A stretch of 64,000 bases of DNA, taken from assembly GCA_049678185.1 (NCBI GenBank), contig JBAUDS010000369.1, forward strand, positions 354 to 64,353. Direction: 5' to 3'. Of this stretch, positions 9,724-45,822 are shown in pieces. This stretch comes from Thermoanaerobaculia bacterium (GTDB lineage: Bacteria > Acidobacteriota > Thermoanaerobaculia > Multivoradales > JAHEKO01). Position 1 is the first letter of the stretch. The number at the start of each line of letters is the position of its first letter. A model generated the notes under the pieces. The model did not search any database, was not told the origin of the DNA, and saw only the letters and a list, made by a program, of their open reading frames with translations. A program made the translations under genes and the position numbers.

Positions 9724-10503
9724 ATGCCGCTCAGCGGACAGAGACTTCTCACCATCACGACTGCTCTCATCGCTTGCGTTGCGCTTGGCTGCGGCACGGT
9801 CCCGGTGAGCGCCGACTCCACCCCTCTGCCCCTCCAGATCCCCAGGGACCGACCCCTGCGTGCCGGATTCTTGATCGTCGACGGGGTCTACAACACCGAG
9901 CTGACGGCTCCCTACGACGTCTTTCAGCACACCAGTGCACATTTGGGCGCGGGGTCCGGCATCGAAGTTTTTACCGTCTCACCGGATGGAGGCGAGGTGA
10001 CCACCGCCGAGGGACTTCGGATCGTCCCGCACTACAGCTTCGAGACCGCTCCCCCGATCGATATTCTCGTTGTGCCTAGCGGCGAGCACAGCCGGGACGC
10101 CGACAGACAGAACCGGGACCTCATCCAATGGGTGAGCAAGACCGGCGCGCAGGCACACTTTGTCGTCTCCCTGTGTTGGGGAGCCTTTATCTTGGCCGAG
10201 GCCGGACTACTGGACGGCCACTCGTGCACCACCTTCCCCGGTGACTACCGACCCTTCGCCGAGGCCTTTCCCGACCTGGATCTCCGCATCAACGTCACTT
10301 TTGTCCACGACGGCCGCGTGCTGACCTCCGAGGGAGGCGCCCACAGCTACGACGTGGCCATGTACCTGGTGGATCTGCTGTTTGGAGAAGAAGTCGCGAA
10401 GGGGATCGGTCAGGGGTTGCTGATCCCGTGGCCTCCCACCGGCGGTGTACGGCCCGCCTACGTCACCGATCCTGGCATGTCTCTCAAAAGATCGACCGAG
10501 TGA
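9724..10503 (+). CDS. DJ-1/PfpI family protein (class I glutamine amidotransferase-like fold), probably a lipoprotein.
   Basis: Signal peptide with lipobox-like LIACVALGCG. DJ-1/PfpI core (ILVVPSGE...HFVVSLCWGAFILAEAGLLDGHSCTTFP) with the nucleophile-elbow Cys (SLCWGA). Confidence 0.8.
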   Translation: MPLSGQRLLTITTALIACVALGCGTVPVSADSTPLPLQIPRDRPLRAGFLIVDGVYNTELTAPYDVFQHTSAHLGAGSGIEVFTVSPDGGEVTTAEGLRIVPHYSFETAPPIDILVVPSGEHSRDADRQNRDLIQWVSKTGAQAHFVVSLCWGAFILAEAGLLDGHSCTTFPGDYRPFAEAFPDLDLRINVTFVHDGRVLTSEGGAHSYDVAMYLVDLLFGEEVAKGIGQGLLIPWPPTGGVRPAYVTDPGMSLKRSTE

Positions 10504-10598
10504 TGACCGGATTCATCGCCGTCATGTTCATCCTCCCGGTCGCCATCGTCGTCGCGGCGATCGTCCTCGGTCGACGCGCCGGCTCATGGAAGAACTAG
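10503..10598 (+). CDS. Micro-ORF encoding a 31-aa single-TM peptide (MTGFIAVMFILPVAIVVAAIVLGRRAGSWKN). Possible small accessory subunit of the downstream symporter.
   Basis: Its ATG overlaps the DJ-1 stop by 1 nt (TGATG). Its TAG stop lies 10 nt inside the symporter start, in a different frame (ATG 10586). The peptide is a hydrophobic helix followed by a basic tail. Support is positional only. Confidence 0.35.
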   Translation: MTGFIAVMFILPVAIVVAAIVLGRRAGSWKN

Positions 10599-12103
10599 CC
10601 ACAACCGAGGTCGTGCTCGACAGCACGGCCTTGGTGAGTTTTGTCGCCTACCTGGTGGTAGTCGTGGCCATCGGCGTCTATGCCACCCGCTTCGCCTCTT
10701 CGGGACTCGGCGAGTTCTTCGTCGGCGGCCGCCAGATGAACCGCTTCGTCGTCGCCCTCTCGGCGGTGGTGTCCGGACGCAGTGCCTGGCTTCTTCTTGG
10801 TGTCACCGGCATGGCCTACCAGATCGGAGCCTCGGCCGTTTGGGCGGTGACCGGTTACATCGTCGCCGAGCTCCTGATGTTTCTCTACTATGCCGGTCGG
10901 CTGAGAAGGTTTAGCGAGGCCTACGATTGCATCACCATTCCCGACTTTTTCGCCGCTCGGTTCAACGACACATTCGGCGTGCTGCGCATACCGTTGGTGG
11001 CCATCATCCTGGTATTCATGGTGAGCTACGTCGCGGCTCAGTTCGTCGCCGGTGGTAAGGCTTTCACTGCGAGCTTTGGCCTCAGCAACACCAGCGGTCT
11101 TCTGCTGACGGCAGCCATCGTTCTCATCTACACGGTGCTGGGTGGCTTTCTCGCGGTCAGCCTCACCGACGTGCTCCAGGCCCTGTTCATGATCGTGGCT
11201 TTGGTGCTCCTGCCGCTGGTGGCTATCGTAAGTCGGGGTGGGCTGAGGGCCGTAATCGACCAGCTCGCGGCGCTCGACCCGACCATGATCGATCCGTTCA
11301 CCCTGTCGGCGGGTGCTCTTGTCGGCTTTCTCGGTATCGGCCTCGGCTCGCCGGGCAATCCCCACATTCTGGTGCGTTATATGTCGATTCGCGACCCCGA
11401 GCAGCTGCGCTTCTCGGCGGTGGTGGGAACGGTCTGGAACGTGGTGATGGCGTGGGGCGCTCTCTTTATCGGACTCGTGGGCCGGGTCTACTTTCCGATC
11501 CCCGATCTCCTCCCCGCGGGCGATGCCGAGAACCTCTACGTAGCCCTCGCCAGGCAGCAGCTCCACCCGATCCTCCTCGGACTGGTGATTGCGTCCATCT
11601 TTGCCGCCATCATGTCGACCGCCGACTCCCAGCTTCTGGTTGCCGCTTCGAGCATCGTCCGCGACCTCTATCAGAAGGTCTTTCGCCGCGGCCGGGAGTT
11701 GTCCTCTCGGCGGCTGGTGATCTACAGCCGGGTGGTGGTCGTTCTGCTGGTGCTCTTGGCGCTGCTCTTTGGATACCTGGCCCACGACCTGGTCTTCTGG
11801 CTGGTGCTCTTTGCCTGGGCGGGTCTCGGCGCCGCCATCGGTCCCACTTCCATTCTCGCGCTCTACTGGCGCCGGACCACCCGCGCGGGCGTCTTGGCAG
11901 GTCTTCTCGCCGCCACTGCCGTCACCTTCATCTGGCGAGCGGACGATAGTCTCAACGACTCGCTCTATGTGCTCATTCCGGGCTTCTTGGCAGCCTTTGT
12001 GGCGACCGTCGTGGTGAGCCTCGTCACAGAACCGCCGGACGACGCCGATGAGATGCTCGACAGGATGACCGACTCGGGCGAGGGAAAGCGACGCCCGGGG
12101 TGA
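10586..12103 (+). CDS. putP: Sodium:solute symporter family transporter, PutP-like Na+/proline symporter.
   Basis: 505 aa with about 13 TM segments. The SSS-family signature region (GRQMNRFVVALSAVVSGRSAWLLLGVTGMAYQIG) resembles PutP. Confidence 0.75.
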   Translation: MEELATTEVVLDSTALVSFVAYLVVVVAIGVYATRFASSGLGEFFVGGRQMNRFVVALSAVVSGRSAWLLLGVTGMAYQIGASAVWAVTGYIVAELLMFLYYAGRLRRFSEAYDCITIPDFFAARFNDTFGVLRIPLVAIILVFMVSYVAAQFVAGGKAFTASFGLSNTSGLLLTAAIVLIYTVLGGFLAVSLTDVLQALFMIVALVLLPLVAIVSRGGLRAVIDQLAALDPTMIDPFTLSAGALVGFLGIGLGSPGNPHILVRYMSIRDPEQLRFSAVVGTVWNVVMAWGALFIGLVGRVYFPIPDLLPAGDAENLYVALARQQLHPILLGLVIASIFAAIMSTADSQLLVAASSIVRDLYQKVFRRGRELSSRRLVIYSRVVVVLLVLLALLFGYLAHDLVFWLVLFAWAGLGAAIGPTSILALYWRRTTRAGVLAGLLAATAVTFIWRADDSLNDSLYVLIPGFLAAFVATVVVSLVTEPPDDADEMLDRMTDSGEGKRRPG

Positions 12104-12117: not shown

Positions 12118-13872
12118 CTACCGTTTGGCGAAATAGACTTGCAGGCGTGAGCCCTGCGGCGTCATATCTCGGACATAGACATCGGCGCCGGTAAGGTCGG
12201 CGACAACGTGGAGAACGCTGCCTTGCGGCTCCTTGTGCAAACCCGTGCGAATACGGTCGATGTGCGAGGTTCCCACATCCAAGGCCGATTCGTCCGGAGC
12301 CCGAGTCACGCCATAGACTTTGATGATGACCCGGGCGTCGTCGCCCTCGATACGCGACAGCTCGACCTGCCCTCCAACAACCACGTCATCGGTCCACAGC
12401 ATGAGAAGAGTTTCACCACCCAACTCCTCCCAGGAGATGCGCTCGACACGCGACAGCTTGCTGACAACCGGTACCACTTCTCGCCTCTCCGTCGGTGCCG
12501 GCGCAACCGGCGGCGTCTCCGTCGCGGCCGTCGACGGAGAAGTCGAGTCGACCTGGGCTTCTTCGGCAGCTGACTCTTCAATCGGTGGCAGCGGCTCGAG
12601 CGGGGCAGAGACCTCCACCTCGGACTCGCCCTCGATAAAGGAGGCGACACTGGACGTCAACACCTCGACATACGGCTGGAGCAGACCCATGTAGTAGGCA
12701 TAGCCTGCGGCTCCCGCGAGGATCGCCACTACCAACAACAGGAACAACCCGCGTCCGGATCTCCGCTTCGTGCTGTGGGTTCCCAGCGACGGCTCCGACT
12801 CCGCCATTCCCATGTCGGTCTCGCCGACCGCTCCGGTCTCATCCGGCCACTTCAGGGCACCGGAAGCGACCACCAGCTCATCGGGCACGGGTACGTCGGC
12901 GAGCTCCTCGGTGAACCGGATTTCGGGGACACGGGGAACCGTTGGCGGCGGCTCGAAGCTGGTCGTCGGTGGCGGACTGATCGCAACCGGTTCCTCCCAC
13001 CGAACATCCTCGCTGTCCGTGGGAGCCACATCCATGCCGCCGATCTCCGGCAGCTCCACCCGTGGCGGCTCGGGCAGGGGCGGTTGTGACTCGACAGGCG
13101 GCAGATCCAGGATGGAGATTTCCGGCTCGGCGAACAAAGACTCGGCTGGAGGACCGGCGTCGAGGTCATCGGGCGGCGTGACCAGAGTCGGGGGGCTTAC
13201 CTCATCCACATTCTCAAAGCTCTGTTCCGGCAGTGACGTCGACGGCGGTGGGATCGCAACATCGTAAGGTGGTGTGACCAGGGTCGGGGGACTGGCCTCA
13301 TCCATATCCAACAAGCTCTGATCCGACGGCGGCACGGGTTCCGGTTCGGGTGGCCGTACTTCCTGACGCACGCTCGCTTCGATCTCTGCCAACTCGGGAA
13401 TCTCTTGCTCGAGACCCCCGGTGGCATCCGCTTCGATCTCCACCGGGGCCGCCTCGGTGACTGCGGGAGCCGGTTTTTCGAGAACAAACAGGGTCTCGCC
13501 CTGGCGGCGGTGGCTGTCGACGACCTTGGCCAGCAACCGCTGGCCGGGTTCATCGAGGTCCTGGAAGCGAATCGACATCCCCTCCGGCGACTGACCCGCC
13601 GCGAATTCGCGCACGGCCACTACCTCCGCCTCACCCTGCATGAGCTGAAAGCCGTCGGCAATCCTCAATACGAAGCTGAGTCTCGAGCCCGCGGCCTTGG
13701 GGGTCTGGACCTCGACAAACATGCCCTCCTCGGAGAGGGTCGAGACGCTCAGATTGATGAATTCCCTGAAGCTCGGGTACTCCACGACCAGCTGTCGGTC
13801 GCTGAGAGTCACTACTGGCGCGGCGTTCGAATCACCTGTGGCCATCGGGTTCTCGTTTACCTCTGTCGACAT
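12118..13872 (-). CDS. PilZ-domain membrane protein with a proline-rich tandem-repeat linker, one TM helix and a C-terminal AMIN-like domain.
   Basis: N-terminal PilZ-like fold (VVTLSDRQLVVEYP...NLSVSTLSEEGMFVEV...GMSIRFQDLDEPGQRLLAKVV). A Pro/Glu-rich region with near-identical repeats (EASPPTLVTPPYD / EVSPPTLVTPPDD). A TM segment (LFLLLVVAILAGAAGYAYYMGLL). A C-terminal beta-rich domain resembling AMIN (LLMLWTDDVVVGGQVELSRIEGDDARVIIKVYGV...VLHVVADLTGADVYV). Confidence 0.65.
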   Translation of the reverse strand: MSTEVNENPMATGDSNAAPVVTLSDRQLVVEYPSFREFINLSVSTLSEEGMFVEVQTPKAAGSRLSFVLRIADGFQLMQGEAEVVAVREFAAGQSPEGMSIRFQDLDEPGQRLLAKVVDSHRRQGETLFVLEKPAPAVTEAAPVEIEADATGGLEQEIPELAEIEASVRQEVRPPEPEPVPPSDQSLLDMDEASPPTLVTPPYDVAIPPPSTSLPEQSFENVDEVSPPTLVTPPDDLDAGPPAESLFAEPEISILDLPPVESQPPLPEPPRVELPEIGGMDVAPTDSEDVRWEEPVAISPPPTTSFEPPPTVPRVPEIRFTEELADVPVPDELVVASGALKWPDETGAVGETDMGMAESEPSLGTHSTKRRSGRGLFLLLVVAILAGAAGYAYYMGLLQPYVEVLTSSVASFIEGESEVEVSAPLEPLPPIEESAAEEAQVDSTSPSTAATETPPVAPAPTERREVVPVVSKLSRVERISWEELGGETLLMLWTDDVVVGGQVELSRIEGDDARVIIKVYGVTRAPDESALDVGTSHIDRIRTGLHKEPQGSVLHVVADLTGADVYVRDMTPQGSRLQVYFAKR

Positions 13873-13906
13873 ATCTCCAGCGAATTCTAGCAGCCTGACT
13901 CCTCAA

Positions 13907-14677
13907 TTACCCTCCCCTCACCAGCTCGACGAGGTCCTCGAGGGTTCGCAGCTTGCGATCGGTTGCCACAAAGAGTTGAGCCGCGAATAGAGCCGACGCG
14001 GCGTGAGCCGCCAGAAGGTCCAACAGATCGCGGTCCTCGGAAGTCAAGGACGACTTGTGTTCGAGCAGCTTCAGGATAACCAACGCTCCCATGGTCTTTC
14101 CTTTGATCGCGAGGGGGACCACCGCCAAGGCAAAGGAGCCCTCTTCGGTGATAGTTCGCAGGACACCATCGACGAGGGCCTCGTCGACCATCGGATCACC
14201 GCCCGTGTACTCCGGGCCGGCAAACAGCCCGTCGGCCACGCCTTCGGTTCGCCGCGAGACGGCCACCTCGTAGCCGTCGCTCTCACCACGCCGCAGCAGC
14301 AGGGCGAAGCTGTCGGCGCCAAGGAGCTCGATCGCGATCTCGCCGACCGTCCTCTTGACATCTTCGAGGTCGAGTGTCTCGTGCAGCTCACAGGTGGCAA
14401 CATAGAGACTCATCAACCGTCCGCGCTGGTGCTCGACCTCCACCATTCGATCGGTGGTCTCTTGCAGGTCGCTCTCCGCTTCGGCGAGGCGGCTTCTCAG
14501 CCGTTCGTTCTCGCCACTCACCCCACCCACCTCCTGCCCCACATCGGAGGTCTCCTCTGGCGACCTTGCTTGCACCTCGCGTATCAGTACTACCGCCTTG
14601 TCGATCACCGACTGGAGCTCCGCTACGAGCTCTTCCACCGAAAGGTCGCTGGCAACCCGATGCCGCTCTTCTGCCAA
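13907..14677 (-). CDS. GAF-domain protein with an N-terminal coiled coil.
   Basis: N-terminal heptad-like segment (ERLRSRLAEAESDLQETTDRMVEVEHQRGRL), then a GAF-like domain (LEDVKRTVGEIAIELLGADSFALLLRR...MGALVILKLLEHKSSLTSEDRDLLDLLAAHAASALFAA). TTG start at 14677 with an AGAGGA Shine-Dalgarno. Confidence 0.65.
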   Translation of the reverse strand: MAEERHRVASDLSVEELVAELQSVIDKAVVLIREVQARSPEETSDVGQEVGGVSGENERLRSRLAEAESDLQETTDRMVEVEHQRGRLMSLYVATCELHETLDLEDVKRTVGEIAIELLGADSFALLLRRGESDGYEVAVSRRTEGVADGLFAGPEYTGGDPMVDEALVDGVLRTITEEGSFALAVVPLAIKGKTMGALVILKLLEHKSSLTSEDRDLLDLLAAHAASALFAAQLFVATDRKLRTLEDLVELVRGG

Positions 14678-14690
14678 TTGCCCGATCCTC

Positions 14691-15068
14691 TTATTCAGAC
14701 GCCACGGGTTGAATCCGTTCGATGAGCTTCAGAATCTCTTCGTTGCGAAAGGGCTTCTTGATGTACGCAGCCGCACCGGCCTCGAGCCCTCGCACCGTGT
14801 CCTGATCTTTGCCTTCGGTGCTGACGATAATCACCGGCACTTCGTTGAAGGCCTCACTCCCCTTGACCTCATCGAGAAACTCGAAGCCATTCATACTTGG
14901 CATATTTATGTCCAGCAGGATGAGATCGATGTCCGGGTGCTCGTGAAGGCGCTCGAGACCCTCCCTGCCGTCCATCGCGTGCACCAGGGCATAGGATCGG
15001 AGCATCACCTCGAACATCTTGTGAATCAACTTCGAGTCGTCGACAACAAGCACTTTCTTTGGCTGCAC
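14691..15068 (-). CDS. CheY-like single-domain response regulator (receiver domain only).
   Basis: KKVLVVDDS...DLILLDINMPSMNGFEFL...VPVIIVSTEG...AAYIKKPF carries all the receiver hallmarks. The chosen GTG start at 15068 gives 125 aa and has an AGGAG Shine-Dalgarno 10 nt upstream. The ORF track extends it to an upstream ATG at 15176, which is also possible. Confidence 0.75.
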   Translation of the reverse strand: MQPKKVLVVDDSKLIHKMFEVMLRSYALVHAMDGREGLERLHEHPDIDLILLDINMPSMNGFEFLDEVKGSEAFNEVPVIIVSTEGKDQDTVRGLEAGAAAYIKKPFRNEEILKLIERIQPVASE

Positions 15069-15234
15069 TGGCCTCGAGCTCCTATCTGAAACGAATCGCT
15101 GATCCCCTGGGGCGCGGGAATGAGTTGTGGGCACCATTCCCACCCGAGCGTAGCCGATCCTGCGACCTGCGTACAATCTCCTCTTTCACAGCACCCTACG
15201 GCACGACCCGGCCTCCAACCAGTGGTCTAGTTCA

Positions 15235-15266
15235 TTGACAAAAAACGTCGTCAAGCATAGTTAATG
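15235..15266 (+). promoter_or_regulatory. Candidate sigma-70-type promoter for the che operon (TTGACA, then 17-19 nt, then a TAGTTAAT-like -10).
   Basis: An AT-richer island sits in the 250-bp divergent intergenic region. TTGACA at 15235-15240 and a TA-rich hexamer about 17-19 nt downstream lie roughly 55-85 nt upstream of the cheA start. Pattern match only. Confidence 0.2.
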
Positions 15267-15319
15267 ACAGGACTTTTTCTACATCTCCAAAAGGCTATCG
15301 ACCAGATCAAAAACCCGCA

Positions 15320-16900
15320 GTGAACGACCTCACCAAAGAGCTTCTCGAAGACTTCCGCCTCGAGTCTAGAGAACGAATAGATCGGGTCGAGGATGGACTC
15401 CTGACTCTGGCCGGCGCTGCCCATCCGGAGCGACAGCCGCTGGTGTTGAAGGTGCGTTTGGAGCTCCACACACTCAAGGGCAACTCGGGAATGATGGGGT
15501 TCGACGACCTGCAGGCTCTGGCTCACGAGCTCGAGGACGAGATCGATCGGATCGACCTCGATCAGCCGGATCTCGGGCCCTTTCTCACCGGGCTCGATCG
15601 CATGAGAACCCGCGTCGAGGAGCTGGCGGCACCAGGCCCTCATTCGGACGCGACCGATTCCACTGAAACCACGATCACTGCAACGGAGAGCGGACAATCG
15701 GTTCGCGACAGTGTACGCGTCCCTGCCGACAAGCTCGATTCACTGGTGGATGCGGTCGCCGAGTCGCTCATCGCCCGCAACCGACTGACCGCCAGCGTCG
15801 AGCTCGGGCTCGAGCTCGACGTCACCGACGACGACTACATCACGTCTTCTGTCCACACCTGGGGCCAGGTCCAGGAAGCTCTACACTCGCTGAGCAAAGA
15901 GCTCGAAGCCATACAGGAACAGACACTCCGGCTACGGATGGTTCCTTTGAGCACGCTCTTCGGCAAACTCAAGCGCCTCGTTCACGACGAGGCCCTCAAG
16001 TCCGGCAAGGAGGCGCGCCTTACCACCCAGGGGGGTGAGACGACTGTCGACAAGGCGCTGGCGGATTTTGCCGGGGATGCCCTGGGCCATCTGGTTCGCA
16101 ATGCAGTCCACCATGGCATCGAGACGCCGAAGAGTCGGCAGCGTTCCGGCAAGTCTCCTTGCGGCACCATCCACCTCGCCGCCGCGGTGGTCTCGGGGAT
16201 GGTAGAGATCGACCTGCTCGACGACGGCGCCGGCATCGATCACTCGGCCCTGCTCGCAGCCGCGCGCCGCCACGGTCTGGACGCAGGTGACGACGAGGAT
16301 CTCCGCTCACTCGTCTTCCAAACCGGAATCTCCACCCGGACCCAGACCGACCTGAGCGCTGGTCGGGGAGTTGGACTGGCTGCTGTCCGCAATGCCGCTC
16401 ATCTCCTGGGGGGATCGATCGATCTGGCAAGCGAGAAGGACCTCGGTACCCACTTCCGCCTCCGCCTCCCGACCCAAGCTTCGATTACCCAAGCACTCCT
16501 GGTGAGGGTCGACAGCGAAAGATACGCCCTGCCGGTGATGTCCGTCGTCGACACCCTGGCGCTTGCCGGAAGCTCGGACGGGCTTGCACCCAGTGCCGGG
16601 CAAATGGACTGGAGAGGGAGAGGTCTCGATCTACTCGATCTGGGACAGGGCTTTGGCACCTCGGAGAGCAGACGCCGGCACGGCCACGTCGTGGTAGTGG
16701 CGGCGGAAGGGAGCGAGCGCGGGCTGATCGTGGATGAAATCGAGGGCATCCACCAGATCGTCGTCAAGCAGCTCGATCGGCTCGTCGCCGGGGTACAGGG
16801 CATCTCCGGCTCGACGATTCTCGGCGACGGTCGCGTCGTCATGATCCTCGACGCCGCCGATCTCGCAACACTGCCTCTACCGGAAGCGCAGCCATCATGA
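15320..16900 (+). CDS. cheA: Chemotaxis histidine kinase CheA (P1-P3-P4-P5; no recognisable P2 domain).
   Basis: HPt domain with the phospho-His context (LHTLKGNSGMMGF). Dimerisation segment. HATPase_c (HLVRNAVHHGIE...DDGAGID...GRGVGLAAV). C-terminal CheW-like domain. GTG start. Confidence 0.9.
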   Translation: MNDLTKELLEDFRLESRERIDRVEDGLLTLAGAAHPERQPLVLKVRLELHTLKGNSGMMGFDDLQALAHELEDEIDRIDLDQPDLGPFLTGLDRMRTRVEELAAPGPHSDATDSTETTITATESGQSVRDSVRVPADKLDSLVDAVAESLIARNRLTASVELGLELDVTDDDYITSSVHTWGQVQEALHSLSKELEAIQEQTLRLRMVPLSTLFGKLKRLVHDEALKSGKEARLTTQGGETTVDKALADFAGDALGHLVRNAVHHGIETPKSRQRSGKSPCGTIHLAAAVVSGMVEIDLLDDGAGIDHSALLAAARRHGLDAGDDEDLRSLVFQTGISTRTQTDLSAGRGVGLAAVRNAAHLLGGSIDLASEKDLGTHFRLRLPTQASITQALLVRVDSERYALPVMSVVDTLALAGSSDGLAPSAGQMDWRGRGLDLLDLGQGFGTSESRRRHGHVVVVAAEGSERGLIVDEIEGIHQIVVKQLDRLVAGVQGISGSTILGDGRVVMILDAADLATLPLPEAQPS

Positions 16901-17496
16901 GCAAACAATCCGGAGAGACCGAAAACGGGACGCAGGAGCTGCCGCAGTCCGGTCTCAAGGACGAGGTCCTGAACCGCGACGAGGATGATCGCCCTGGGCT
17001 CCTCTATCGTTTCGCCGACAGTCTGCGTAGCGGCGACGAGGAACAAGAAAAACCGGAAGAACCCGAGATCTGGCTGGTCTTTCGCCTCGGGGAGAGCTCC
17101 TTCGGTCTGCCGGTCGCCGATATACGGGAGGTCATGCGTGTCGGCGCCATCACCCGTGTGCCTCAGGCACCTTTTGCGGTTACGGGTGTCACCGACCTCC
17201 GTGGTCGCGTCATACCGATCGTCGATCTCGGAGCACGTTTCGACCTCGACCCCGTCGAGGTCGACGAGCAGAGTCGCATTGTCGTGCTCGATGCCGAAGG
17301 CCGACTGATCGGCCTTCTCGTGGACGCCGTCGATCGGGTAGGCCGCATCCTCCCCAGTCAGAAGGAAGACCCGGACCCGGGCGCCGACGGCCAGCCCGCC
17401 GCTGTTGTAGCTCTCTATTCGTGGGAAGACGAGCAGTTGAGGCTCCTCGACGTCGAGGAGCTGCTCTCGATCGACGAGACCCATGAAGGGCCCTAG
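16897..17496 (+). CDS. cheW: Chemotaxis coupling protein CheW.
   Basis: CheW domain (WLVFRLGESSFGLPVADIREVMRV...VIPIVDLGARF...RIVVLD...IGLLVDAV). Its ATG overlaps the cheA TGA by 4 nt. Confidence 0.85.
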   Translation: MSKQSGETENGTQELPQSGLKDEVLNRDEDDRPGLLYRFADSLRSGDEEQEKPEEPEIWLVFRLGESSFGLPVADIREVMRVGAITRVPQAPFAVTGVTDLRGRVIPIVDLGARFDLDPVEVDEQSRIVVLDAEGRLIGLLVDAVDRVGRILPSQKEDPDPGADGQPAAVVALYSWEDEQLRLLDVEELLSIDETHEGP

Positions 17497-17511
17497 TAGG
17501 GGATTGGACCG

Positions 17512-19467
17512 ATGCTCAAGAATCTGAAGTTCCGCCACAAGATGATTCTCCTACCGGTACTGGCCGGTATCGGATTCCTGCTCGTTCTCGCTCTTCTCGC
17601 CCGTAGCGCGCAGAAGAACGAGCTGTTCATGAAACGGATCGAGGCCGGGCACTTCGCCGCCTTGGAGCTCGCCCAGACCCTGACCGTCGACCTGGCCGTT
17701 CTCGAGCGGAGCTTCGAAGATGCTCTCGATTCGAACGACCCGAGCACCCTCGCACAAGCCGAAGAGCTGCGCGGCGTCTTTCTGCGCAATCTGCAGATCG
17801 GCGACGAGCTCGCGGTCCTCGACCCGGTAGGCCTGGAGAAACTGGAGACTGATTTCGAGAACTACTACGAGATCGCCCGCATCACCACGCTGCAAGCGAT
17901 GGATGCCGCCGTGGGTGCAGCTTCGCCTCCGGACTCGAGCCGCGGTGCTCAAGCCCATGAGAGCGTTCGGCACCAGATCGAGGCCCTGTCCGCCGAGCAG
18001 GCTCGCGAGATGCACCAGGCCTTTGCCTCGGTGCAGGAGAACATCAGGGCAACCAAGGTCGACATGACGGTTGTCATCGCCGTTTGGCTGGTGCTGCTCA
18101 TGTCCTTGGCGCTGGTGGTGATGTTTTCGGTGACGCGGCCGATGGAGCAGGCGGTGCGTGTGGCCGACCGTCTGGCGGAGGGCGACGTGGAAGTGGACAT
18201 CACGGTCGATTCCCGCGACGAAGCCGGTCTTCTCTTGCGCTCGATGAAGGACACGGTCAGCTACCTCCAGGAGATGGCCACGGTTGCCGACAGCATTGCC
18301 GAGGGAGATCTTGCGGTCGAGGTCGAGCCACATTCCGATCGCGATCGGCTGGGCAACTCCTTTCTCAAGATGTCCCACAACCTGCGCAAAATGATCGGCG
18401 ACCTCAAGGCGGCCTCCGACCAGGTCCTGACTTCCGGCAACGAGATCTCGACATCCGCCGTCGAGATTTCCCAGGGTGCCGAAAGTCAGTCCTCGGCCAC
18501 CGAAGAGACGTCTTCGACGATGGTGGAGATCGCCACCCAGATCGAAAGCGTCGCCAAATCGACACAGGCCCTGGCCACCAACGTCGAAGAGACCTCGTCC
18601 TCCATCCTGGAGATGGGTGCATCGATCGACGAGACCGCCAAGAACTCCGACAGCTTGATGACGGCGGTCGACGAGACCTCCGCCACCATCGAGGAGATGA
18701 TCGCTTCCATCCACTCCATCGCCGACAAGGTGAAGGTCGTAGACAAGGTCTCGCGCGAGGCCGCCGAGTTGGCGGAGAGCGGCGGCACCGAGCTCTCGGA
18801 GATCATCGAGGGCATCGGCACATCGAGCGCCGACATTGGCAAGATCGTCCAGATCATCGAGGAGATCGCCGACCAGACCAATCTGCTGGCTCTCAACGCC
18901 GCCATCGAGGCGGCGCGGGCCGGTGACGCCGGGCGTGGTTTCGCCGTCGTCGCCGAAGAGGTCAGGCGCCTGGCCGAGCGGTCGGTGGAGTCGAGCCGCG
19001 AAATCTCCGAGATGGTCGAGTCGGTCCAGAACGACACCCTTCAGGCTGTCGAGGTCACGCGCAAGATCCTCCGCCAGATCATCGACTCGGTGAGCGAGGC
19101 CACTGCCCTCGTCGGCGACGTCTCCCTGGCCACCCAGGAGCAGAGCGACGGAGCGGCACAGATCCTCGAAACTTCGAGCCATATGCAGGACACGACTCGA
19201 CAGCTGGCCTCCGCCGCCGCCGAGCAGGCTCGCAGCACCGGGGACATCCTGCGGGCGGTGGAGTCGATGAATCAGATGACCCAGCAGGTCGCCGAAGCCG
19301 GTTACGAGCAAAAACGAGGCGGCGACATCGTGGTGAAAGCGGTCGAGCACATCGCCGAGATCGCCAATCAGAATCTCGCCGCCAGCTCTCAGCTGTCGCA
19401 GGCGACCGTAAGTCTGACCAAAGAGGCCAAACGGCTGCAGCTGATGTCCAATATCTTCAAGCTCTGA
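17512..19467 (+). CDS. Methyl-accepting chemotaxis protein with two TM segments and HAMP domains.
   Basis: Two TM segments, HAMP linker(s) ([22 protein letters not shown]...; [20 protein letters not shown]), and the highly conserved MCP signalling domain ([36 protein letters not shown]). Confidence 0.9.
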
Positions 19468-19482
19468 GGAAGGGATGGCTCG

Positions 19483-21390
19483 ATGACAAAGAAAAACCCC
19501 TCCTCCGGTACCGCTCTCAGCTGGGAGGAGTGCATGGAGTTGCTCGAGAAGCTCCCCTCGCTGTCCCTCGAGGAACGGGCAGAGGCGATAGAAGCCCTGG
19601 TGCGCAACCCGAGCCCCGGAGTGCGGGGGCAGGCCCTCCAGGTCGGTGCCGCGATCTTGCCCGAGGAAACGCTGATCGAGTACATGCGGAGCGACTCCGA
19701 TGCCGTGCATCGCAACGCGGCTACCGAGATTCTCAAGATCCGAGGAAGTCGCAGTTTTCACCTGGCGGTCGAGTTGCTGGAAGACGAGGACCCCGACGTC
19801 GTGCTCCAGGCGGTTCTAATTCTCGATCACCTCAAAGACCCACGGGCTTTCGAGGCCCTGCGCGGGGCGCTTCACCACAGCGATCCCAATGTCGCCCAGT
19901 CCGCCATCGTCGCCGTCGGTCGTCTCGGTGATGCCAGGGCCATTCCCGACCTCCTACCTTTCCTGGAGAGCGATACCTGGCTTCGTGTCGCCGCGATTCA
20001 GGCCCTGGGTGACATCCGCTCGCCGGCCGCTGTCGAGCCGCTGAGCCCGCTGCTGACCGATCTGATGAGCGGGCCGATGGTCATCGAGGCTCTCGCCAGG
20101 ATTGGTGGCGAGGAGGCCTATCGGGCGCTCAGCGACCACTGGCTGCGCTTTCAAGACGAGTTGGACACCGAGACTGCTATCGGCTTTCTGGCCCACGTTG
20201 TCGAGGGTCTGCCCGAGCCTCCGCCACCCCGTCCCGAGCTCCGGTTGAGTCTGGCCGAGCGCCTGCGCGACCCCTACCGCGCGGTGCGACTCTCGGCCGC
20301 TCGCTGTCTGCTGGCACTGGGACCGGGGGCCGAGGACGCCGAGGCTCTCCACCTGCTCGCCGACTCTCTGCGCGAGGGGCCCACCATCCTGCCCAGCTGT
20401 CTCGCCCAGCGAACCGACCTCGCCGACACGCTCCTCGAAAGATCGGGCGCCTGGCGATTCTGGGGCTTCCTCTCCGCCGCCAAGCACCCGGGCTCCGCCT
20501 CCCCCGAGTCCCTGGCGCGCGCTCTGACCCGCGACGAGCCGGTGGAGTCTCTCGAAGCCATCATCGAGGCTCTGCGGGACGTCAAAAGCCCGGTCGTGGC
20601 AAATGCGCTATTGGATTTCTACCTGGGCCTTCCCGTCGAAGAGCGGGCCGGGCTCGAGCCGATCCTGGAGGAGCAGAGCGACCATCTCTCGGGCGTTTTG
20701 AAGCAGAGGAAAGATCTGCCGGAGACCGAGAGGCTGGTTGTACAAGCCCTGCTGGGGGAGCCGGCCGAGGGCATCGTGGCCCGCATCGTCGAGCTCGAAC
20801 CCGCGGAGCGGGTCGAGGTGATCTCGCGCCTCGGAGGTCATCCGGAGATCGTGCGTCAGCTACCGTGGCCGACATGGCTCGAGGAAGATCCCGAGCGCTA
20901 CGCCGAGCTGGCGGCACAGTCGGCGATCGCCTCCGGCTCGCGGGAGTTGTTACCGACGCTTCGATCTCTGCTCGAGCGTTTTCCCTTGCCCGATCTCGTT
21001 AGGGCCGCCGGTGAGCTTGGCGATCGCAAAGCGGTGCCGACTCTCATCAAACTTCTCGATGCCAAGAAGCCGCTCGTCTTCGTGCTCATTATCGAGAACC
21101 TGGGCAAGATCGGGGGGCCGGATGCCCGACACCATCTGCAGACCCTGGCCTCCGAAGAGGATGAGAAGATCGCCCGCCTCGCCTACAAGGCGCTGGCCTC
21201 GTGCGCCACCGAAGAAGACGATGAGTTTTTTCGCCAGGCCATCGATCACCAGGATTGGCTCGTCCGCCTCGCCTGCGTCGAAGTTCTCGGACGCTTCACC
21301 CGTCAGGAGAACATGGCAGCGCTGGCCCAATTGGCAGCCGACCCGGTTGCCGCGGTAGCCGAGCGCGCGGCCGCGGCACTGGAGGGATGA
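19483..21390 (+). CDS. HEAT-repeat (PBS-lyase-like) protein encoded inside the che operon.
   Basis: Repeated DPxVRxxAxxALGxIGDxRAV-type units (e.g. DPDVVLQAVLILDHLKDPRAFEAL; DPNVAQSAIVAVGRLGDARAIPDLL; DTWLRVAAIQALGDIRSPAAVEPL; RAAGELGDRKAVPTLIKLL). Confidence 0.7.
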   Translation: MTKKNPSSGTALSWEECMELLEKLPSLSLEERAEAIEALVRNPSPGVRGQALQVGAAILPEETLIEYMRSDSDAVHRNAATEILKIRGSRSFHLAVELLEDEDPDVVLQAVLILDHLKDPRAFEALRGALHHSDPNVAQSAIVAVGRLGDARAIPDLLPFLESDTWLRVAAIQALGDIRSPAAVEPLSPLLTDLMSGPMVIEALARIGGEEAYRALSDHWLRFQDELDTETAIGFLAHVVEGLPEPPPPRPELRLSLAERLRDPYRAVRLSAARCLLALGPGAEDAEALHLLADSLREGPTILPSCLAQRTDLADTLLERSGAWRFWGFLSAAKHPGSASPESLARALTRDEPVESLEAIIEALRDVKSPVVANALLDFYLGLPVEERAGLEPILEEQSDHLSGVLKQRKDLPETERLVVQALLGEPAEGIVARIVELEPAERVEVISRLGGHPEIVRQLPWPTWLEEDPERYAELAAQSAIASGSRELLPTLRSLLERFPLPDLVRAAGELGDRKAVPTLIKLLDAKKPLVFVLIIENLGKIGGPDARHHLQTLASEEDEKIARLAYKALASCATEEDDEFFRQAIDHQDWLVRLACVEVLGRFTRQENMAALAQLAADPVAAVAERAAAALEG

Positions 21391-21397
21391 GGCACCG

Positions 21398-22240
21398 GTG
21401 ACGACACCTCCCGTGACGATGACCTATGAGGAGTTCCAGCTCCTCAACGAGTTCATCTCCGACCTCATCGGGGTCAGCTTCCCCGCGGAGAGGGGCCGTT
21501 TGCTCGAATCCCGTCTGCGGCCCCGTGTCCAAGCGCTGCATCTGCCCCGGTTCATGGACTACTACTTTGTGCTCCAGTACGACATCGATAGCGAGGCCGA
21601 GCACCTCATGCACGCCGTCACCAACAATGAGACCTACTTTTTTCGCGAGACCCGCCAGTTCGAGGCTCTGTTCGATGAAGTGATCGGAGACCTCAAGGCA
21701 GAGGCCGTGACGCCAGGAACCATCCGGCTCCTCTGCGCCGGCTGCTCCTCGGGAGAAGAGCCCTACACCATCCGCATGTTCGGCGAGGAGAACCCCAACC
21801 CCGACGGCGAGTCGATGCTGCAAATCGACGCCATCGACATCGACCTGGAGCGCCTCGAGGCCGGCAGGACGGCGGAGTACGGGCCCAATTCCCTGCGCAG
21901 CACCAGCGAGACCCAGATCCAGAGCTACTTCAGCCGCAGCGGCAGCAATCGATTCAAACTCCTGCCGCATCTGCGGGTAGGAGTTCGCTTCTCCTACGGC
22001 AACATTCTGGATCTCGACTCCTATCCCAGCCTGGTCTCCTACGACGCGGTCTTCTGCAGGAATGTCTTGATCTACTTTTCGGAGGCGGCCCTCCACCGCG
22101 CCCTCGACAGCTTCGCCCGCGCCCTGCGCCCGGGAGGCCTACTTTTCCTGGGCCACTCCGAGTCGATCATCGGCGTCACACCGCAATTCGAGCCAGTCAG
22201 ACTCAGGAAGTGCATCGTCTACCGAAAGACCGGCGAGTGA
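21398..22240 (+). CDS. cheR: Chemotaxis protein methyltransferase CheR.
   Basis: N-terminal CheR helical domain plus SAM-dependent MTase (ETYFFRE...IRLLCAGCSSGEEPYTI...VFCRNVLIYFS). GTG start. Confidence 0.9.
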   Translation: MTTPPVTMTYEEFQLLNEFISDLIGVSFPAERGRLLESRLRPRVQALHLPRFMDYYFVLQYDIDSEAEHLMHAVTNNETYFFRETRQFEALFDEVIGDLKAEAVTPGTIRLLCAGCSSGEEPYTIRMFGEENPNPDGESMLQIDAIDIDLERLEAGRTAEYGPNSLRSTSETQIQSYFSRSGSNRFKLLPHLRVGVRFSYGNILDLDSYPSLVSYDAVFCRNVLIYFSEAALHRALDSFARALRPGGLLFLGHSESIIGVTPQFEPVRLRKCIVYRKTGE

Positions 22241-23313
22241 AGAAGATCCGCGTCGCCGTTGTGGACGACTCCTCCTTCATGCGCAAGGCGGTGGTGCGCA
22301 TGCTGGCGCCGGAGCCGCGCATCGTGGTCGTGGGTACCGCGGCCTCGGGTGAGGAGCTGCTGACACAGCTCGATACCTGGCAGCCCGATGTCGTCACCCT
22401 CGATCTCTTCATGCCCGGGATGGGTGGTCTGCGGACCCTCGATCGCATCATGGAGCGCAAACCGCTGCCGGTGATTCTCCTGTCGAGCCATTCGAGAGAG
22501 CGGGCGCCGCTGACCATCGAAGCACTGCACCGCGGCGCGGTCGACTTCATCGACAAGCAGCGCTACTCACTGGTGGATTTTCAAGCCCTGGGCAGGGTCC
22601 TGATCGACAAGATACTCCTGGTCACCGGGGCGCATGTCCATCCCCCGGACAGAGGCGCACACACAGGCGCACCAGAGGAGCACACGGGACCCGAAAGGCG
22701 GGCGCATCCCCGCGTGAGAAGCCCGCAGGCCACCCGAGCCCCTGCCTACGACCTCCTGCTGATGGGAGCCTCCACCGGCGGACCGGTGGCGATCCGCGAG
22801 ATCCTGGAGGACCTGGGTACCGATCTGCGGGTACCGGCAGTGGTGGTTCAGCACATGCCCAAAGGTTTTACCAGGGCTTTTGCCGAGCGGCTCAACAGCC
22901 AGCTACCGGTGCCGGTGCTCGAGGTCCTGGGCAGAGAGCCCCTGCTGCCTTCGACGATCTACATAGCACCTGCCGAGCGCCACCTGGTGATCCGCGGACG
23001 CCCTGGAGAGTTGACCGTCGTCGCCACCAGCGATCCCGACGACGTCACCCACCGACCCTCGGTCGATGTCCTCTTCTCCTCCGCAGCCAGCATCCCCGAG
23101 CTGCGGGTTGTCGGCCTGCTGCTCACCGGGATGGGGAGCGACGGCGCCAAGGGGATGAAGGAACTGGCCGGCGCCGGCGCCTTCACCCTGGCCCAAGACG
23201 CCGATACCTCGATTGTCTACGGCATGCCACGGGCCGCCGCCGAGCTCGGGGCCGCCCACGAGATCCTGCCGCTCGGCCAGATCGCCGCCCGGCTAAGAGA
23301 TTTAATTGGGTGA
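22236..23313 (+). CDS. cheB: Protein-glutamate methylesterase CheB (receiver domain plus CheB methylesterase).
   Basis: Receiver (KKIRVAVVDDSSFMR...VVTLDLFMPGMGG) plus methylesterase (LLLMGASTGGPVAIREIL...VVVQHMPKGFTRAFAERLN...GMGSDGAKGMKEL). A GTG at 22236 overlaps the cheR TGA (GTGA). An in-frame ATG at 22210 is an alternative start. Confidence 0.85.
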
Positions 23314-23412: not shown

Positions 23413-23976
23413 TCACCCTTCGGGCATCTCCGGCTCGAGGTCTATTCCCAAGCCGTCGGCCAGCCGGTTGTAATAGGCAAACATTCCCGTGACCTGGACG
23501 ATGTCGTGGATGGCGTGGTCGTCGAAACCCTGGTCGCGGATTGGCTGGAGATCCTGCTCCACCACCTGGCCGGGTGTCAGGGTGAGCTTGGCCACAAACT
23601 CGAGCATCGCCCGGTCGGCCGGGGCGAGGTCGGCTTGGGTGTAGTCGGTCTTGATCGCCGCCACCAGCGCCTCGGCCCCCGCCTGTCCCTGGACCTCTGC
23701 CCGGAGGTCCTCGCCATGGGCCTCGGCTCAGTAGTGACAGTCGTTGACCGCCGAGACCGTGGTGGCGATCATCTCCCGCTGTGCCCGGGTCAGCCCGCTC
23801 TCCAGTGAGTGCATGATCTCGATATAGGTCTGGGTCGACGAGCGCAGCACCTTGGGTCGCAGGCTCTGGATGCTGATGATGTTGTAGACCTTCCCCGCCC
23901 GCTTGACCGCGGCGTTGTAAAGCTGCTTCAACAGCCCCTCGGCCTCCCCCGGGGGAATCACCCTGATCCAAGCCAT
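23413..23976 (-). CDS. AhpD-like / carboxymuconolactone decarboxylase family protein (187 aa) with an in-frame TGA at the second Cys of the CxxCxxxH motif. Candidate selenoprotein (alternatively a pseudogene).
   Basis: Two ORFs in the same frame (23728-23976 and 23413-23664) are split by a single TGA at 23728-23730. The translation reads ...VSAVNDCHY[TGA]AEAHGEDLRAEVQGQ...AAIKTDYTQADLAPADRAMLEFVAKLT. The motif CHY-U-AEAH matches the AhpD CxxCxxxH active site. The frame stays open and conserved-looking for 83 codons after the TGA. A 7-bp perfect hairpin lies 17 nt downstream of the UGA. Confidence 0.5.
23691..23710 (-). promoter_or_regulatory. Candidate bacterial SECIS-like hairpin (GGACCUC-CGGGCA-GAGGUCC) 17 nt 3' of the in-frame UGA.
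   Basis: Seen directly: a 7-bp perfect stem with a 6-nt G-rich loop in the mRNA sense. Its spacing from the UGA is within the range reported for bacterial SECIS elements. No covariance model was run. Confidence 0.35.
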
Positions 23977-28710: not shown

Positions 28711-31764
<3,054 letters not shown>

Positions 31765-42967: not shown

Positions 42968-43332
42968 TCGCCGCCTTCGCTGCTCTTCATCTCCACCAAG
43001 ATCAGATCGATCGGTCCGTCCCCCACGTTCGCGGGCAGGTGGTCCCCGGCCGGGGTCCAGATCGCCTCTTTGCCCTTGTTCTCCACCTCCTGGGTCGAGC
43101 CATCGGCCATCGTGAACTGGACCATCTGGTCGGTCAAGAAGACGGCCACACTGTCTGGGTGGTAGTGCATCACCGACTTCTCACCCACGCCATAGGTGAT
43201 CCGCAATACCCGCACTTCGTCATTCTCGAACACCACCTTGTAGTGATCGGGGTCGACCTTGGTCGGGTCTTCCCCCGCCGACAAGGGCGCTACCGCCAGC
43301 AGAAGACACAGCATCATCAGACATCTACGCAT
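42964..43332 (-). CDS. Secreted cupin-domain protein (122 aa).
   Basis: Signal peptide (MRRCLMMLCLLLAVAPLSA) plus small cupin barrel (HYKVVFENDEVRVLRITYGVGEKSVMHYHPDSVAVFLTD). GGAGG Shine-Dalgarno 7 nt before the ATG at 43332. The upstream extension in the ORF track was rejected. Confidence 0.65.
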   Translation of the reverse strand: MRRCLMMLCLLLAVAPLSAGEDPTKVDPDHYKVVFENDEVRVLRITYGVGEKSVMHYHPDSVAVFLTDQMVQFTMADGSTQEVENKGKEAIWTPAGDHLPANVGDGPIDLILVEMKSSEGGD

Positions 43333-43447
43333 AGCAAACCTCCATTGCGACTCGAGCCGCGCTGCCGCGAGCTCATTCTCTGTTCGTGCGAAACTGCCGC
43401 GCATCCTACCACCAAGAAAGGGCGCTTGGGATAGGATTCGGGCCATC

Positions 43448-44803: not shown

Positions 44804-44811
44804 AGGTAGAG

Positions 44812-45051
44812 GTGGAGGCCGAAACATCGAACAGCTTTTCGAGTGTTGCCCCAATCCTTGTGATTCTGGGATACGCGGCGGCTTTTCATCTTCTGTACTC
44901 GGCAAGGGAACGGTACGGCTGGACGAGGAGGACAGTAGGCTGGTTGGGGAGGGTCACCAGGCATGGAGAGAGCATCGTCCTAATTTGGGCGCTCATTGCC
45001 GACATGTTGGCAGTGGTGTTCATCATTCTCTGGCTGACGGGGGCCCGTTGA
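44812..45051 (+). CDS. Possible small 2-TM membrane protein (79 aa) in a lower-GC gap.
   Basis: GTG start preceded by GAGGT. Two hydrophobic helices (APILVILGYAAAFHLLY; SIVLIWALIADMLAVVFIILWL). GC3 is lower than the genome norm, so this may be non-coding. Confidence 0.2.
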   Translation: MEAETSNSFSSVAPILVILGYAAAFHLLYSARERYGWTRRTVGWLGRVTRHGESIVLIWALIADMLAVVFIILWLTGAR

Positions 45052-45102
45052 GCCGGTGAACGATCGGATCATGAGACCGATTAGGTGTAGGAGGCACGTG
45101 GC

Positions 45103-45759: not shown

Positions 45760-45822
45760 TCAAAATCTCGGCGAAGGATTTTTGCCTCGACATGACTCAT
45801 ACTTACGGGTCAGGGTGAGTGT

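Follow-up and report, generated by a model that had tools for sequence, protein, structure and literature searches.

Organization of the Locus

The window analyzed here is a 64-kb piece of the genome of an uncultured marine-type Acidobacteriota (Thermoanaerobaculia), and it carries a complete chemotaxis-like gene cluster that includes a large HEAT-repeat scaffold protein. The cluster extends from position 12118 to position 23313, in agreement with the ORF ends, and a Pfam search recovered every domain named in a preliminary description of this DNA. On the plus strand lie the genes for CheA (15320-16900), CheW (16897-17496), a methyl-accepting chemotaxis protein (MCP; 17512-19467), a HEAT-repeat protein (19483-21390), CheR (21398-22240), and CheB (22210/22237-23313), which is the full set proposed earlier. 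The minus strand encodes a single-domain receiver (ORF 14691-15176, called at 14691..15068), a GAF protein (13907-14677), and a PilZ protein (12118-13872, called at 12118..13845); this trio is likewise present as described, the PilZ protein with one transmembrane (TM) segment by hydropathy. Between the two operons lies an AT-rich divergent intergenic region (15069..15319), read from the sequence, which may serve as a promoter region in both directions, a role that stays presumptive because a consensus sigma-70 scan returned no site within it. The cluster neighbors include an AhpD-like gene, a metallo-beta-lactamase-fold gene, and LepA. The arrangement recurs in several independent assemblies, and a relative with 88% identity (L093) has it too, which rules out an assembly artifact.

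Components of the Plus-Strand Operon

CheA (526 aa) has the layout P1-P3-P4-P5, with Pfam matches to Hpt (7-100), H-kinase_dim (130-200), HATPase_c (254-386), and CheW (391-516), and its translation shows an HTLKG H-box as well as the G1 and G2 boxes. It has no receiver domain, and since only ~30 residues separate P1 from the dimerization domain, there is no P2, as had been claimed. All CheAs of the family are similarly short (526-570 aa), so the whole family lacks P2. A P2-less Hpt-dimerization-HATPase-CheW layout does not, however, mark a kinase as ACF or Tfp; in those classes CheA most often has a receiver or extra Hpt domains. A CheA-receiver hybrid architecture, which is typical of the ACF class and not universal in it, has been linked with ACF/F3 (bioRxiv 10.1101/2022.05.07.491037); the CheA described here ends in its CheW domain, with no REC domain following. 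Tfp (Pil-Chp type) systems are recognized by a CheA that has several Hpt domains plus a receiver, by paired PilG/PilH receivers, and by pil linkage; in this cluster CheA has a single Hpt and lacks REC, just one receiver is encoded, and the 64 kb contain no pil genes.

CheW (Pfam CheW, 2.5e-34) bears an acidic N-terminal extension of ~55 aa, and its start overlaps the cheA stop. The MCP (MCPsignal, 2.5e-43) is a transmembrane receptor with two TM segments by hydropathy, two HAMP domains, and a long signaling hairpin with its tip at residue 472. Its helical periplasmic domain of ~145 aa has no Pfam match, alignment with Tsr gives an approximate estimate of ~6-7 extra heptads per arm, and a C-terminal NWETF-type pentapeptide is absent from the translation. 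CheR consists of N-terminal and SAM domains (CheR, 1.4e-45; CheR_N, 2.4e-9) and has no TPR, and CheB is a methylesterase with an N-terminal receiver domain (CheB_methylest, 1.1e-58; Response_reg, 6.8e-21), scoring 352 bits against the NCBIfam model PRK00742 (cut-off 293). In a synteny sample of 78 genome loci, the CheA-CheW-MCP-HEAT-CheR-CheB core was found in ~50-60.

The Divergent Receiver and Its GAF and PATAN Partners

The 125-aa receiver (Response_reg, 6.5e-26) is the most conserved component of the cluster, with a median identity of 64% across ~50 related loci, compared with 41-55% for the other components. The acid pocket, phospho-Asp, Thr, Tyr, and Lys-Pro are all conserved among 49 sequences, in which the α4-β5-α5 face is at least 90% conserved. 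The receiver is linked to che genes in ~45-48 of the 52 loci with cheA, which supports the earlier proposal of a functional link between the two divergent operons; at four loci (L034, L037, L047, and L063), no receiver gene lies within 10 kb. In six outgroup loci (L049, L064, L065, L068, L071, and L089), the receiver gene is directly upstream of cheA and co-directional with it, and in seven loci the receiver-GAF(-PATAN) block has been relocated 3′ of cheB, the receiver moving along with the GAF and PATAN genes. Linkage, joint relocation, and outgroup orientation all argue that the divergent receiver is the probable cognate response regulator of CheA. The preliminary description had stressed that the operon contains no CheY; there is indeed no second single-domain receiver on the plus strand, but the absence is an effect of gene orientation only. 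In a PDB comparison, the receiver was equally similar to flagellar CheYs and OmpR-type receivers, so its sequence does not exclude FliM as a target.

The GAF protein (256 aa; GAF_2, 4e-8) consists of a helical N-terminus, the putative coiled coil of the preliminary description, followed by a GAF domain, with no output domain, and a search for relatives with a solved structure found none. Its gene adjoins the receiver gene in 30 loci (median identity 53%), and it accompanies the receiver as a conserved partner. In ~29-35 related loci the GAF gene is followed by one for a DUF4388/PATAN protein (E 1e-28 to 1e-32), and in ~30 the receiver shares an operon with both the GAF and the PATAN proteins. 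The PATAN protein of these relatives has a REC-like middle domain and a GAF-like domain at the C-terminus, and the conserved Lys is lost. In Synechocystis, PATAN binds PilB1/PilC and is a domain that binds the type IV pilus motor (bioRxiv 10.1101/2021.06.11.447907), so the presence of a PATAN-(pseudo)receiver-GAF protein in most relatives' operons points to control of type IV pili or cell polarity. A tblastn search of the whole 64-kb window found no PATAN homolog, and judged by comparison with related loci, the lineage of the window has lost the gene. The window itself lacks the PATAN link, which is the strongest pointer to type IV pili.

The cyanobacterial Tax/Pix systems, in which PatA-type PATAN-REC and CheY-like regulators control type IV pili, resemble the relatives of this cluster in having a CheY-like receiver together with a PATAN-REC-like protein. 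They differ in that no PATAN gene is present in the window and no pil genes are adjacent here, in that the relatives' PATAN protein is without the conserved Lys and bears the C-terminal GAF-like domain, and in that Tax systems are not known to include a HEAT protein.

A PilZ-TM-AMIN Protein Added to the Operon in One Clade

The last gene of the minus-strand operon encodes a 575-aa protein predicted to be bitopic, with a cytoplasmic PilZ-like domain, a long Pro/Glu-rich linker, one TM helix, and a periplasmic AMIN-like domain. The match to Pfam PilZ is 27.1 bits (cut-off 22.5), and TIGR02266 scores 54 bits, which is under the cut-off of that model. The TM helix (12679..12762, minus strand; aa 362-389) reaches a maximum of 2.1 in a 19-residue Kyte-Doolittle window. 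The C-terminal domain (12121..12429, minus strand), predicted to be periplasmic, adopts the β-sandwich fold of AMIN and differs from the AMIN domains of PilQ and AmiC in giving no Pfam match to AMIN (PF11741) at E<=1. In PilQ and AmiC, this fold directs the protein to peptidoglycan at the poles or septa. No characterized protein is known to link a PilZ domain to an AMIN domain on the other side of the membrane.

The N-terminal PilZ domain (13525..13746, minus strand) is like c-di-GMP receptors by its Pfam match but unlike them in its binding motifs, with DSNAA in place of RxxxR and TLSEEG in place of D/NxSxxG. Stand-alone relatives of the protein keep RDSRR and NISPGG in the alignment, and only the che-linked copies have lost both motifs. 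Such che-linked copies are confined to the window lineage, L013, L015, L066, L093, and L094. Elsewhere the family is stand-alone, with canonical c-di-GMP motifs (L096-L103), and includes copies of ~460 aa at five metagenome loci that have no che, receiver, GAF, or PATAN gene within 10 kb. The gene is also absent from ~25 other loci that keep the receiver-GAF-PATAN set. By this distribution, the PilZ-AMIN gene is a late operon addition specific to the window's clade and not a conserved output of the pathway, and the earlier suggestion of a PilZ output is overstated, the copy in the window having also lost its c-di-GMP motifs.

The same distribution lends weight to an alternative that is a real possibility, though we would put it somewhat short of even, namely that the protein belongs to an independent family of envelope-associated c-di-GMP receptors and is a passenger at this locus and not the output of the pathway. 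Against this stands the position of the gene on the same strand as the GAF gene, only 34-61 bp past its stop codon, which indicates that the two are probably co-transcribed. The confinement of motif loss to che-linked copies also argues against a passenger and is compatible with a switch of the PilZ input from c-di-GMP to a partner protein. In addition, two lineages that are ~88% identical have kept the linkage after loss of the intervening PATAN gene.

The HEAT Protein and the Resemblance to Che7

The HEAT protein (635 aa; HEAT_2, 9e-44) is an all-HEAT solenoid of ~40 helices (AF2 pLDDT 91); in the AF2 model it has no catalytic domain and the structure of a pure interaction scaffold, and comparison with the PDB gave generic solenoid matches only. 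The family comprises ~70 full-length 50%-identity clusters among 1.84e9 proteins, and its gene sits between mcp and cheR in ~60 loci; it is the hallmark component of this cluster type. CheW::HEAT fusions of 822 aa occur in L007, L008, and L016 and as P0190; the fusion genes come from two independent assemblies and from the representative library, and the clusters that encode them also keep a free HEAT paralog and have no MCP gene. These fusions suggest that the solenoid is probably located at or near the receptor array. The preliminary description had taken a HEAT protein within a che operon as a feature of Frz/Che-like systems; it is documented for Che7 and for haloarchaea and not for Frz.

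Che7 (Darnell et al. 2014, cited via PMC3945109, PMC11514114, and PMC9040617) is a developmental, non-motility system of Myxococcus xanthus, encoded by MXAN_6965-6959 in the order CheY7, CheA7, CheW7, Mcp7, (6961), CheR7, CheB7, with no P2 or REC detected in CheA7 (PMC3945109). In that system the HEAT protein Cpc7 is bound by CheY7, which regulates development (PMC11514114, PMC9040617). With the receiver upstream of cheA and co-directional, as in the outgroup loci, the order of the present cluster becomes CheY-CheA-CheW-MCP-HEAT-CheR-CheB, equal to that of Che7. The likeness extends to a PBS-lyase-type HEAT-repeat protein between mcp and cheR and to a CheA with no detectable P2 and no receiver domain, the single-domain receiver being the sole output-type regulator. 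The HEAT protein and Cpc7 share the HEAT_PBS/phycocyanobilin-lyase-like annotation type, a comparison made at the level of description. There are also clear distinctions. The receiver here is divergent and followed by the GAF gene (then by PilZ-AMIN in the window and by PATAN in its relatives), the present MCP spans the membrane and carries two HAMP domains whereas Mcp7 is soluble and has none, CheA is 526 aa with a ~30-aa linker compared with 683 aa for CheA7, and the HEAT protein has ~40 helices compared with the 27 reported for Cpc7. Furthermore, Che7 has an adjacent desaturase gene (des7), with no desaturase neighbor here, and the host is an acidobacterium and not a member of Myxococcota.

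A second documented case is OE2401F of Halobacterium salinarum, a HEAT_PBS protein encoded in the che/fla region and required for CheY-dependent motor switching (PMC2666748). The likeness lies in the repeat type, HEAT_PBS, and in a gene grouped with che genes; the halobacterial protein is needed to connect Che signaling with its output. OE2401F is archaeal and acts with CheF (DUF439) on the archaellum, and its reported interactions are with CheD and CheF rather than with CheY.

The role of the HEAT protein could also be read differently, as an array or scaffold component (e.g., a receiver docking platform replacing P2) or an intracellular sensory input, and not as a target of the receiver. The CheW fusions in clusters that have no MCP gene, the uniformly short, P2-less CheAs, the embedding of the gene between mcp and cheR, and the catalysis-free scaffold structure are all consistent with such a role. 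However, the published reading for M. xanthus has Cpc7 as the target of CheY7 (PMC11514114), and a gene fusion indicates proximity and not the direction of signal flow. We regard this role as possible but rather unlikely.

Proposed Function and Alternatives

We consider it fairly probable that the cluster forms one functional unit, a Che7-like, HEAT-containing chemosensory pathway characteristic of Thermoanaerobaculia (Acidobacteriota). It would be a relative, shared across the lineage, of the Che7 type of Myxococcus, which is itself poorly understood, and flagellar steering is probably not its use. In this pathway, the transmembrane MCP would sense some extracytoplasmic cue and, together with CheW, control the P2-less CheA, with CheR and CheB providing methylation-based adaptation. 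CheA would phosphorylate both CheB and the divergently encoded receiver, which would serve as the CheY of the pathway. Once phosphorylated, the receiver is proposed to bypass the flagellar switch and to act through protein contacts of its conserved α4-β5-α5 face. One putative partner, suggested by the CheY7-Cpc7 pair of M. xanthus, is the HEAT solenoid, which the CheW fusions probably place at or near the receptor array; the other is the co-transcribed GAF protein. The PilZ-TM-AMIN protein, kept in the window lineage with a degenerate c-di-GMP site, may anchor or localize the output at the cell envelope.

A more far-reaching interpretation, which we regard as improbable, would place the cluster in an undescribed chemosensory class of Acidobacteriota and neighboring phyla, in which the ~630-aa HEAT protein is a structural member of the receptor-kinase array, in some cases fused to CheW, that docks the receiver to the P2-less CheA. 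If so, the phosphorylated receiver would act on the GAF/PATAN-pseudoreceiver module and, through it, on type IV pilus or polarity machinery, and the window lineage would signal instead to the PilZ-TM-AMIN envelope anchor, its PilZ domain having switched from c-di-GMP to protein binding.

As for the output of the Che7-like pathway, the non-flagellar function suggested by the preliminary description remains plausible and, as far as gene content and order can indicate, likely. The 64-kb window contains no flagellar, pilus, or CheZ/CheC/CheX/CheD/CheV genes, and no flagellar or CheZ/CheC/CheX/CheD/CheV genes were found in the annotated relatives L001, L006, L007, and L092. The gene order of Che7, the closest characterized one and that of a non-motility system, and the co-transcription of receiver and PATAN genes in relatives point the same way. 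Ordinary F-class flagellar chemotaxis, with the divergent CheY diffusing to FliM of a flagellum encoded elsewhere and the HEAT, GAF, and PilZ proteins accessory or unrelated, is improbable in the face of this evidence, although the CheA/W/R/B/MCP set is complete, its receptor spans the membrane, the CheY-like receiver is canonical with its Thr, Tyr, and Lys-Pro, CheA has neither the C-terminal receiver nor the extra Hpt of typical ACF/Tfp kinases, the haloarchaeal HEAT_PBS protein does serve motor switching, and the genome, of which 64 kb were inspected, may carry flagellar genes in another region. The only member of Thermoanaerobaculia known from culture is described as non-motile, which we also count against flagellar chemotaxis.

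Synteny of the divergent receiver

Although the preliminary description presented the pathway as lacking an in-operon CheY, this is merely a matter of orientation, because synteny across related loci suggests that the divergent receiver (RR) is probably the cognate CheY. For this comparison, 21 HEAT homologues were aligned (A1), 78 genome loci were fetched, and the nine window proteins were mapped onto these loci, with ORF clustering added. Homologues bear the names Acidobacteriota or Thermoanaerobaculia, several MAG assemblies (e.g. GCA_049678325.1) encode an identical HEAT protein, and the loci from the genome scan derive almost only from Thermoanaerobaculia ("Ca. Multivoradales") MAGs. The CheA-CheW-MCP-HEAT-CheR-CheB core is seen in about 50-60 loci, and most Thermoanaerobaculia share the layout of the window, in which the receiver and GAF genes are found upstream of cheA in divergent orientation. 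In seven related loci (L025, L032, L043, L059, L072, L080, and L082) the RR-GAF(-PATAN) genes have moved as a block to a position just downstream of cheB, where eight further loci carry RR alone; six outgroup loci (L049, L064, L065, L068, L071, and L089), labelled Nitrospirota, Myxococcota, Gemmatimonadota, and others, have a co-directional RR immediately upstream of cheA. Four loci have no RR within 10 kb. Furthermore, the receiver is the most conserved protein of the set, with a median identity to the window of 64%, followed by CheB (55%), CheR and GAF (53% each), HEAT (51%), MCP (49%), CheA (44%), and CheW (41%). Its acid pocket, phospho-Asp, and the segments STEGK and AGAAAYIxKPF, given as the alpha4-beta5-alpha5 face, are at least 90% conserved.

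Proteins of the cluster

All nine ORFs are present with the ends and domains originally assigned to them. The absence of a P2 domain from CheA was likewise confirmed: P1 (residues 7-100) is followed by a linker of ~30 aa, P3 (130-200), and then P4 and P5. CheA also lacks a receiver domain and carries the H-box (HTLKG) and the G1/G2 boxes. CheR and CheB (the latter with a GASTGG serine motif) appear to be active. Two TM segments and two HAMPs are present in the MCP; its periplasmic domain is helical, spans ~145 aa, and matches no Pfam model, and the tip of its signalling hairpin lies at residue 472. Since alignment with Tsr (36H) indicates about six to seven extra heptads per arm, the MCP is assigned to a long class of about 48H, both values being approximate. 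The receiver, called as 125 aa, has all the canonical CheY residues. A PDB sequence search returned no relatives of the GAF protein.

Likeness to the Che7 system

To our knowledge, the Che7 system of M. xanthus is practically the sole bacterial example in which HEAT-repeat proteins encoded in che operons have been investigated, and what these proteins do is still poorly defined. The tables of Moine et al. (PMC3945109) list MXAN_6965 as CheY7, MXAN_6964 as CheA7 (Hpt, dimerisation, HATPase, and CheW domains, with no P2 or REC detected in those tables), MXAN_6963 as CheW7, MXAN_6962 as Mcp7, MXAN_6960 as CheR7, and MXAN_6959 as CheB7. A single locus tag remains in them between mcp7 and cheR7, from which we infer that MXAN_6961 is Cpc7; on this assignment, the gene order is identical to that of the window cluster. 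Secondary sources (PMC11514114, PMC9040617) describe binding of CheY7 to the HEAT-repeat protein Cpc7 and a coupling of aggregation and sporulation by Che7; additionally, cheW7 mutations affect EPS regulation (PMC4319316).

There are, however, clear distinctions between the two systems. Mcp7 is soluble, whereas the window MCP is a transmembrane protein with HAMPs; the window CheA is shorter than CheA7; the window HEAT solenoid is larger (about 40 helices, versus 27 reported for Cpc7); and the window cluster has no desaturase neighbour. A Cpc7 homologue search from a Myxococcota-MAG HEAT seed recovered the same MAG family only and no M. xanthus sequence, and a profile search of 1.84e9 representatives with cluster look-ups likewise returned this family and no Cpc7 or Che7 sequence. 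The cluster is a Che7-like architecture in another phylum, the likeness being drawn from gene order. Throughout an entire uncultured class of Acidobacteriota, this gene order proves to be the usual form of the chemosensory cluster. New relative to Che7 are the inverted CheY, the GAF/PATAN partners, the array-fused HEAT variants, and the PilZ-AMIN appendage.

Position of the HEAT protein

The HEAT protein is a pure alpha-solenoid whose predicted model has ~40 helices (pLDDT 91), and a fold search of this model against the PDB retrieved only generic solenoids (alphaRep designs, SF3B1, and importins). Among the 1.84e9 representatives, clustering at 50% identity places the full-length members of the family in about 70 groups. 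In three related loci (L007, 4458-6926, +; L008; and L016) and in the representative-library protein P0190, CheW is fused to HEAT in a single 822-aa polypeptide. This Rosetta-stone fusion argues for a predicted role of the HEAT protein at the CheW/CheA array. Besides the fusion, these clusters encode CheW on its own as well as an unfused HEAT paralogue, and mcp is missing within 10 kb. At the array, the solenoid may be a docking scaffold that makes up for the absent P2 domain or, by analogy with the published binding of Cpc7, it could be the target of the receiver.

Variable downstream partners

In about 29-35 related loci, GAF is followed by a gene for a ~540-aa protein, for example at L015 2752-4401 (-), L013 2762-4423 (-), L006 2993-4645 (-), L092 1985-3580 (-), and ~25 more. 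Its N-terminus is a DUF4388/PATAN domain (E 1e-28 to 1e-32), its middle region is REC-like (the Asp is mostly retained, the conserved Lys is gone), and its C-terminus is weakly GAF-like. PATAN is the output domain of Synechocystis PatA-type regulators and binds PilB1/PilC (bioRxiv 10.1101/2021.06.11.447907). For the family as a whole, this is the strongest hint that type IV pili or polarity are what is controlled. No PATAN homologue occurs anywhere in the 64-kb window, where 34-61 bp separate the GAF stop from the PilZ start, and L093, a relative with 88% identity, is organised in the same way and likewise lacks PATAN.

Two further genes recur in the related loci. In a sub-clade (L092 7401-7886, +, and 22 other loci), cheW and mcp are separated by a small gene (~165 aa); its product gives a weak PBP_like_2 match (21.9 bits, below cut-off), and the gene is absent from the window. 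A conserved ~280-aa protein, with no Pfam match and no homologue in the window, is encoded after the PATAN gene in 12 loci, including L092 (1123-1965, -).

In the window, the PilZ-AMIN protein combines a PilZ domain just over the Pfam cut-off with a long Pro/Glu-rich linker and one TM helix. Such a gene follows PATAN only in the nearest clade of the window (L013, L015, L066, and L094), and a homologue search with the TM and AMIN region gave 3 matches only. A metagenome scan with the AMIN-like domain revealed five stand-alone members of ~460 aa from soil and rhizosphere metagenomes (L096 8939-10339, +; L097 127-1506, +; L099 8903-10339, +; L100; and L103), with no che, RR, GAF, or PATAN genes within 10 kb. 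Their PilZ domains score higher (44-47 bits) and keep the canonical RDSRR and NISPGG (RxxxR and NxSxxG), where the window has DSNAA and TLSEEG, so that the c-di-GMP signature is gone from the che-linked copies. The idea that PilZ is a divergent stand-in for the missing PATAN domain was rejected (hhalign probability 0.2%), and at the sequence level the two domains are unrelated. Given the clade-limited linkage, the stand-alone members, the motif loss, and this unrelatedness, the PilZ-AMIN protein is a late, clade-specific recruit. It may have taken on a new role as a protein adaptor or as an anchor in the envelope, or may be a mere passenger; as an adaptor, it may exemplify the re-use of a second-messenger receptor domain. 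Separately, three related loci have an MreB/actin-like gene ~1.1 kb downstream.

Proposed pathway

In the pathway that we propose, and regard as somewhat more probable than not, MCP, CheW, and the P2-less CheA would form the sensing and kinase unit, with adaptation provided by CheR and CheB. CheA would phosphorylate the divergent CheY-like receiver, which would contact HEAT, GAF, in relatives PATAN, and perhaps PilZ-AMIN. The output would be non-flagellar and plausibly related to the pilus, polarity, or envelope; type IV pili in particular are a tentative, rather doubtful assignment. A flagellar output is improbable: the gene survey covered 64 kb of the genome, which leaves it some room, but neither flagellar nor pilus or gliding genes were found within this window. 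For the single window the practical consequence is modest, namely a well-formed alternative chemosensory system and no new principle. A set of about 60 loci for comparison, together with naturally occurring CheW::HEAT fusions and downstream partners that vary (GAF, PATAN, and PilZ-AMIN), makes two questions approachable: at which point of the pathway HEAT is placed, and which process is under the control of a CheY-like protein in bacteria that lack flagella.

Genomic setting and a probable selenoprotein

The G+C content of the window is 62-68%. The genes that flank the che cluster have metabolic or housekeeping roles and encode an SSF transporter, DJ-1, aldehyde dehydrogenase, LepA, and HemN; a BNR/sortilin protein and VWA proteins; a xanthine-dehydrogenase cluster; and FecR/TPR/FG-GAP proteins with a Ser/Thr kinase. 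No tRNA was found in the window, an Rfam scan of it matched no families, and a sigma-70 promoter scan gave no site in the divergent intergenic region. AT skew is strongly negative at 10001-12000 (-0.27) and 44001-46000 (-0.21); both stretches overlap plus-strand polytopic transporter genes (SSF family, 10445-12103; xanthine/uracil permease, 43259-44803), and the skew probably reflects membrane-protein codon composition, not a structural cause. Large secreted or surface-type proteins, comprising a BNR/sortilin-like protein of ~1015 aa, three VWA-domain proteins, and FecR-like, TPR, and FG-GAP/ASPIC proteins, are encoded at 28711-31764 (+), 32521-34998 (+), and 46432-57248, interspersed with an anti-sigma (zf-HC2) gene; together they may form a surface-protein or sigma/anti-sigma regulon. 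A look-up of the ORF at 54855-57248 gave no record.

Beside the che cluster, at 23413-23976 (-), two adjacent "hypothetical" ORFs (82 and 83 aa), which the MAG annotation treats as separate genes, are one frame split by a single in-frame TGA (23728-23730), which lies inside an AhpD/CMD redox motif (...NDCHY[UGA]AEAH...). Reading the TGA as Sec/Cys gives a 187-aa product that aligns over its full length with TIGR01926 ("peroxidase-related enzyme"; 147 bits against a cut-off of 81.8), and a hairpin follows the UGA (MFE -33.3 kcal/mol, z -2.1). On these sequence features, the product is a probable selenoprotein mis-split by annotation.
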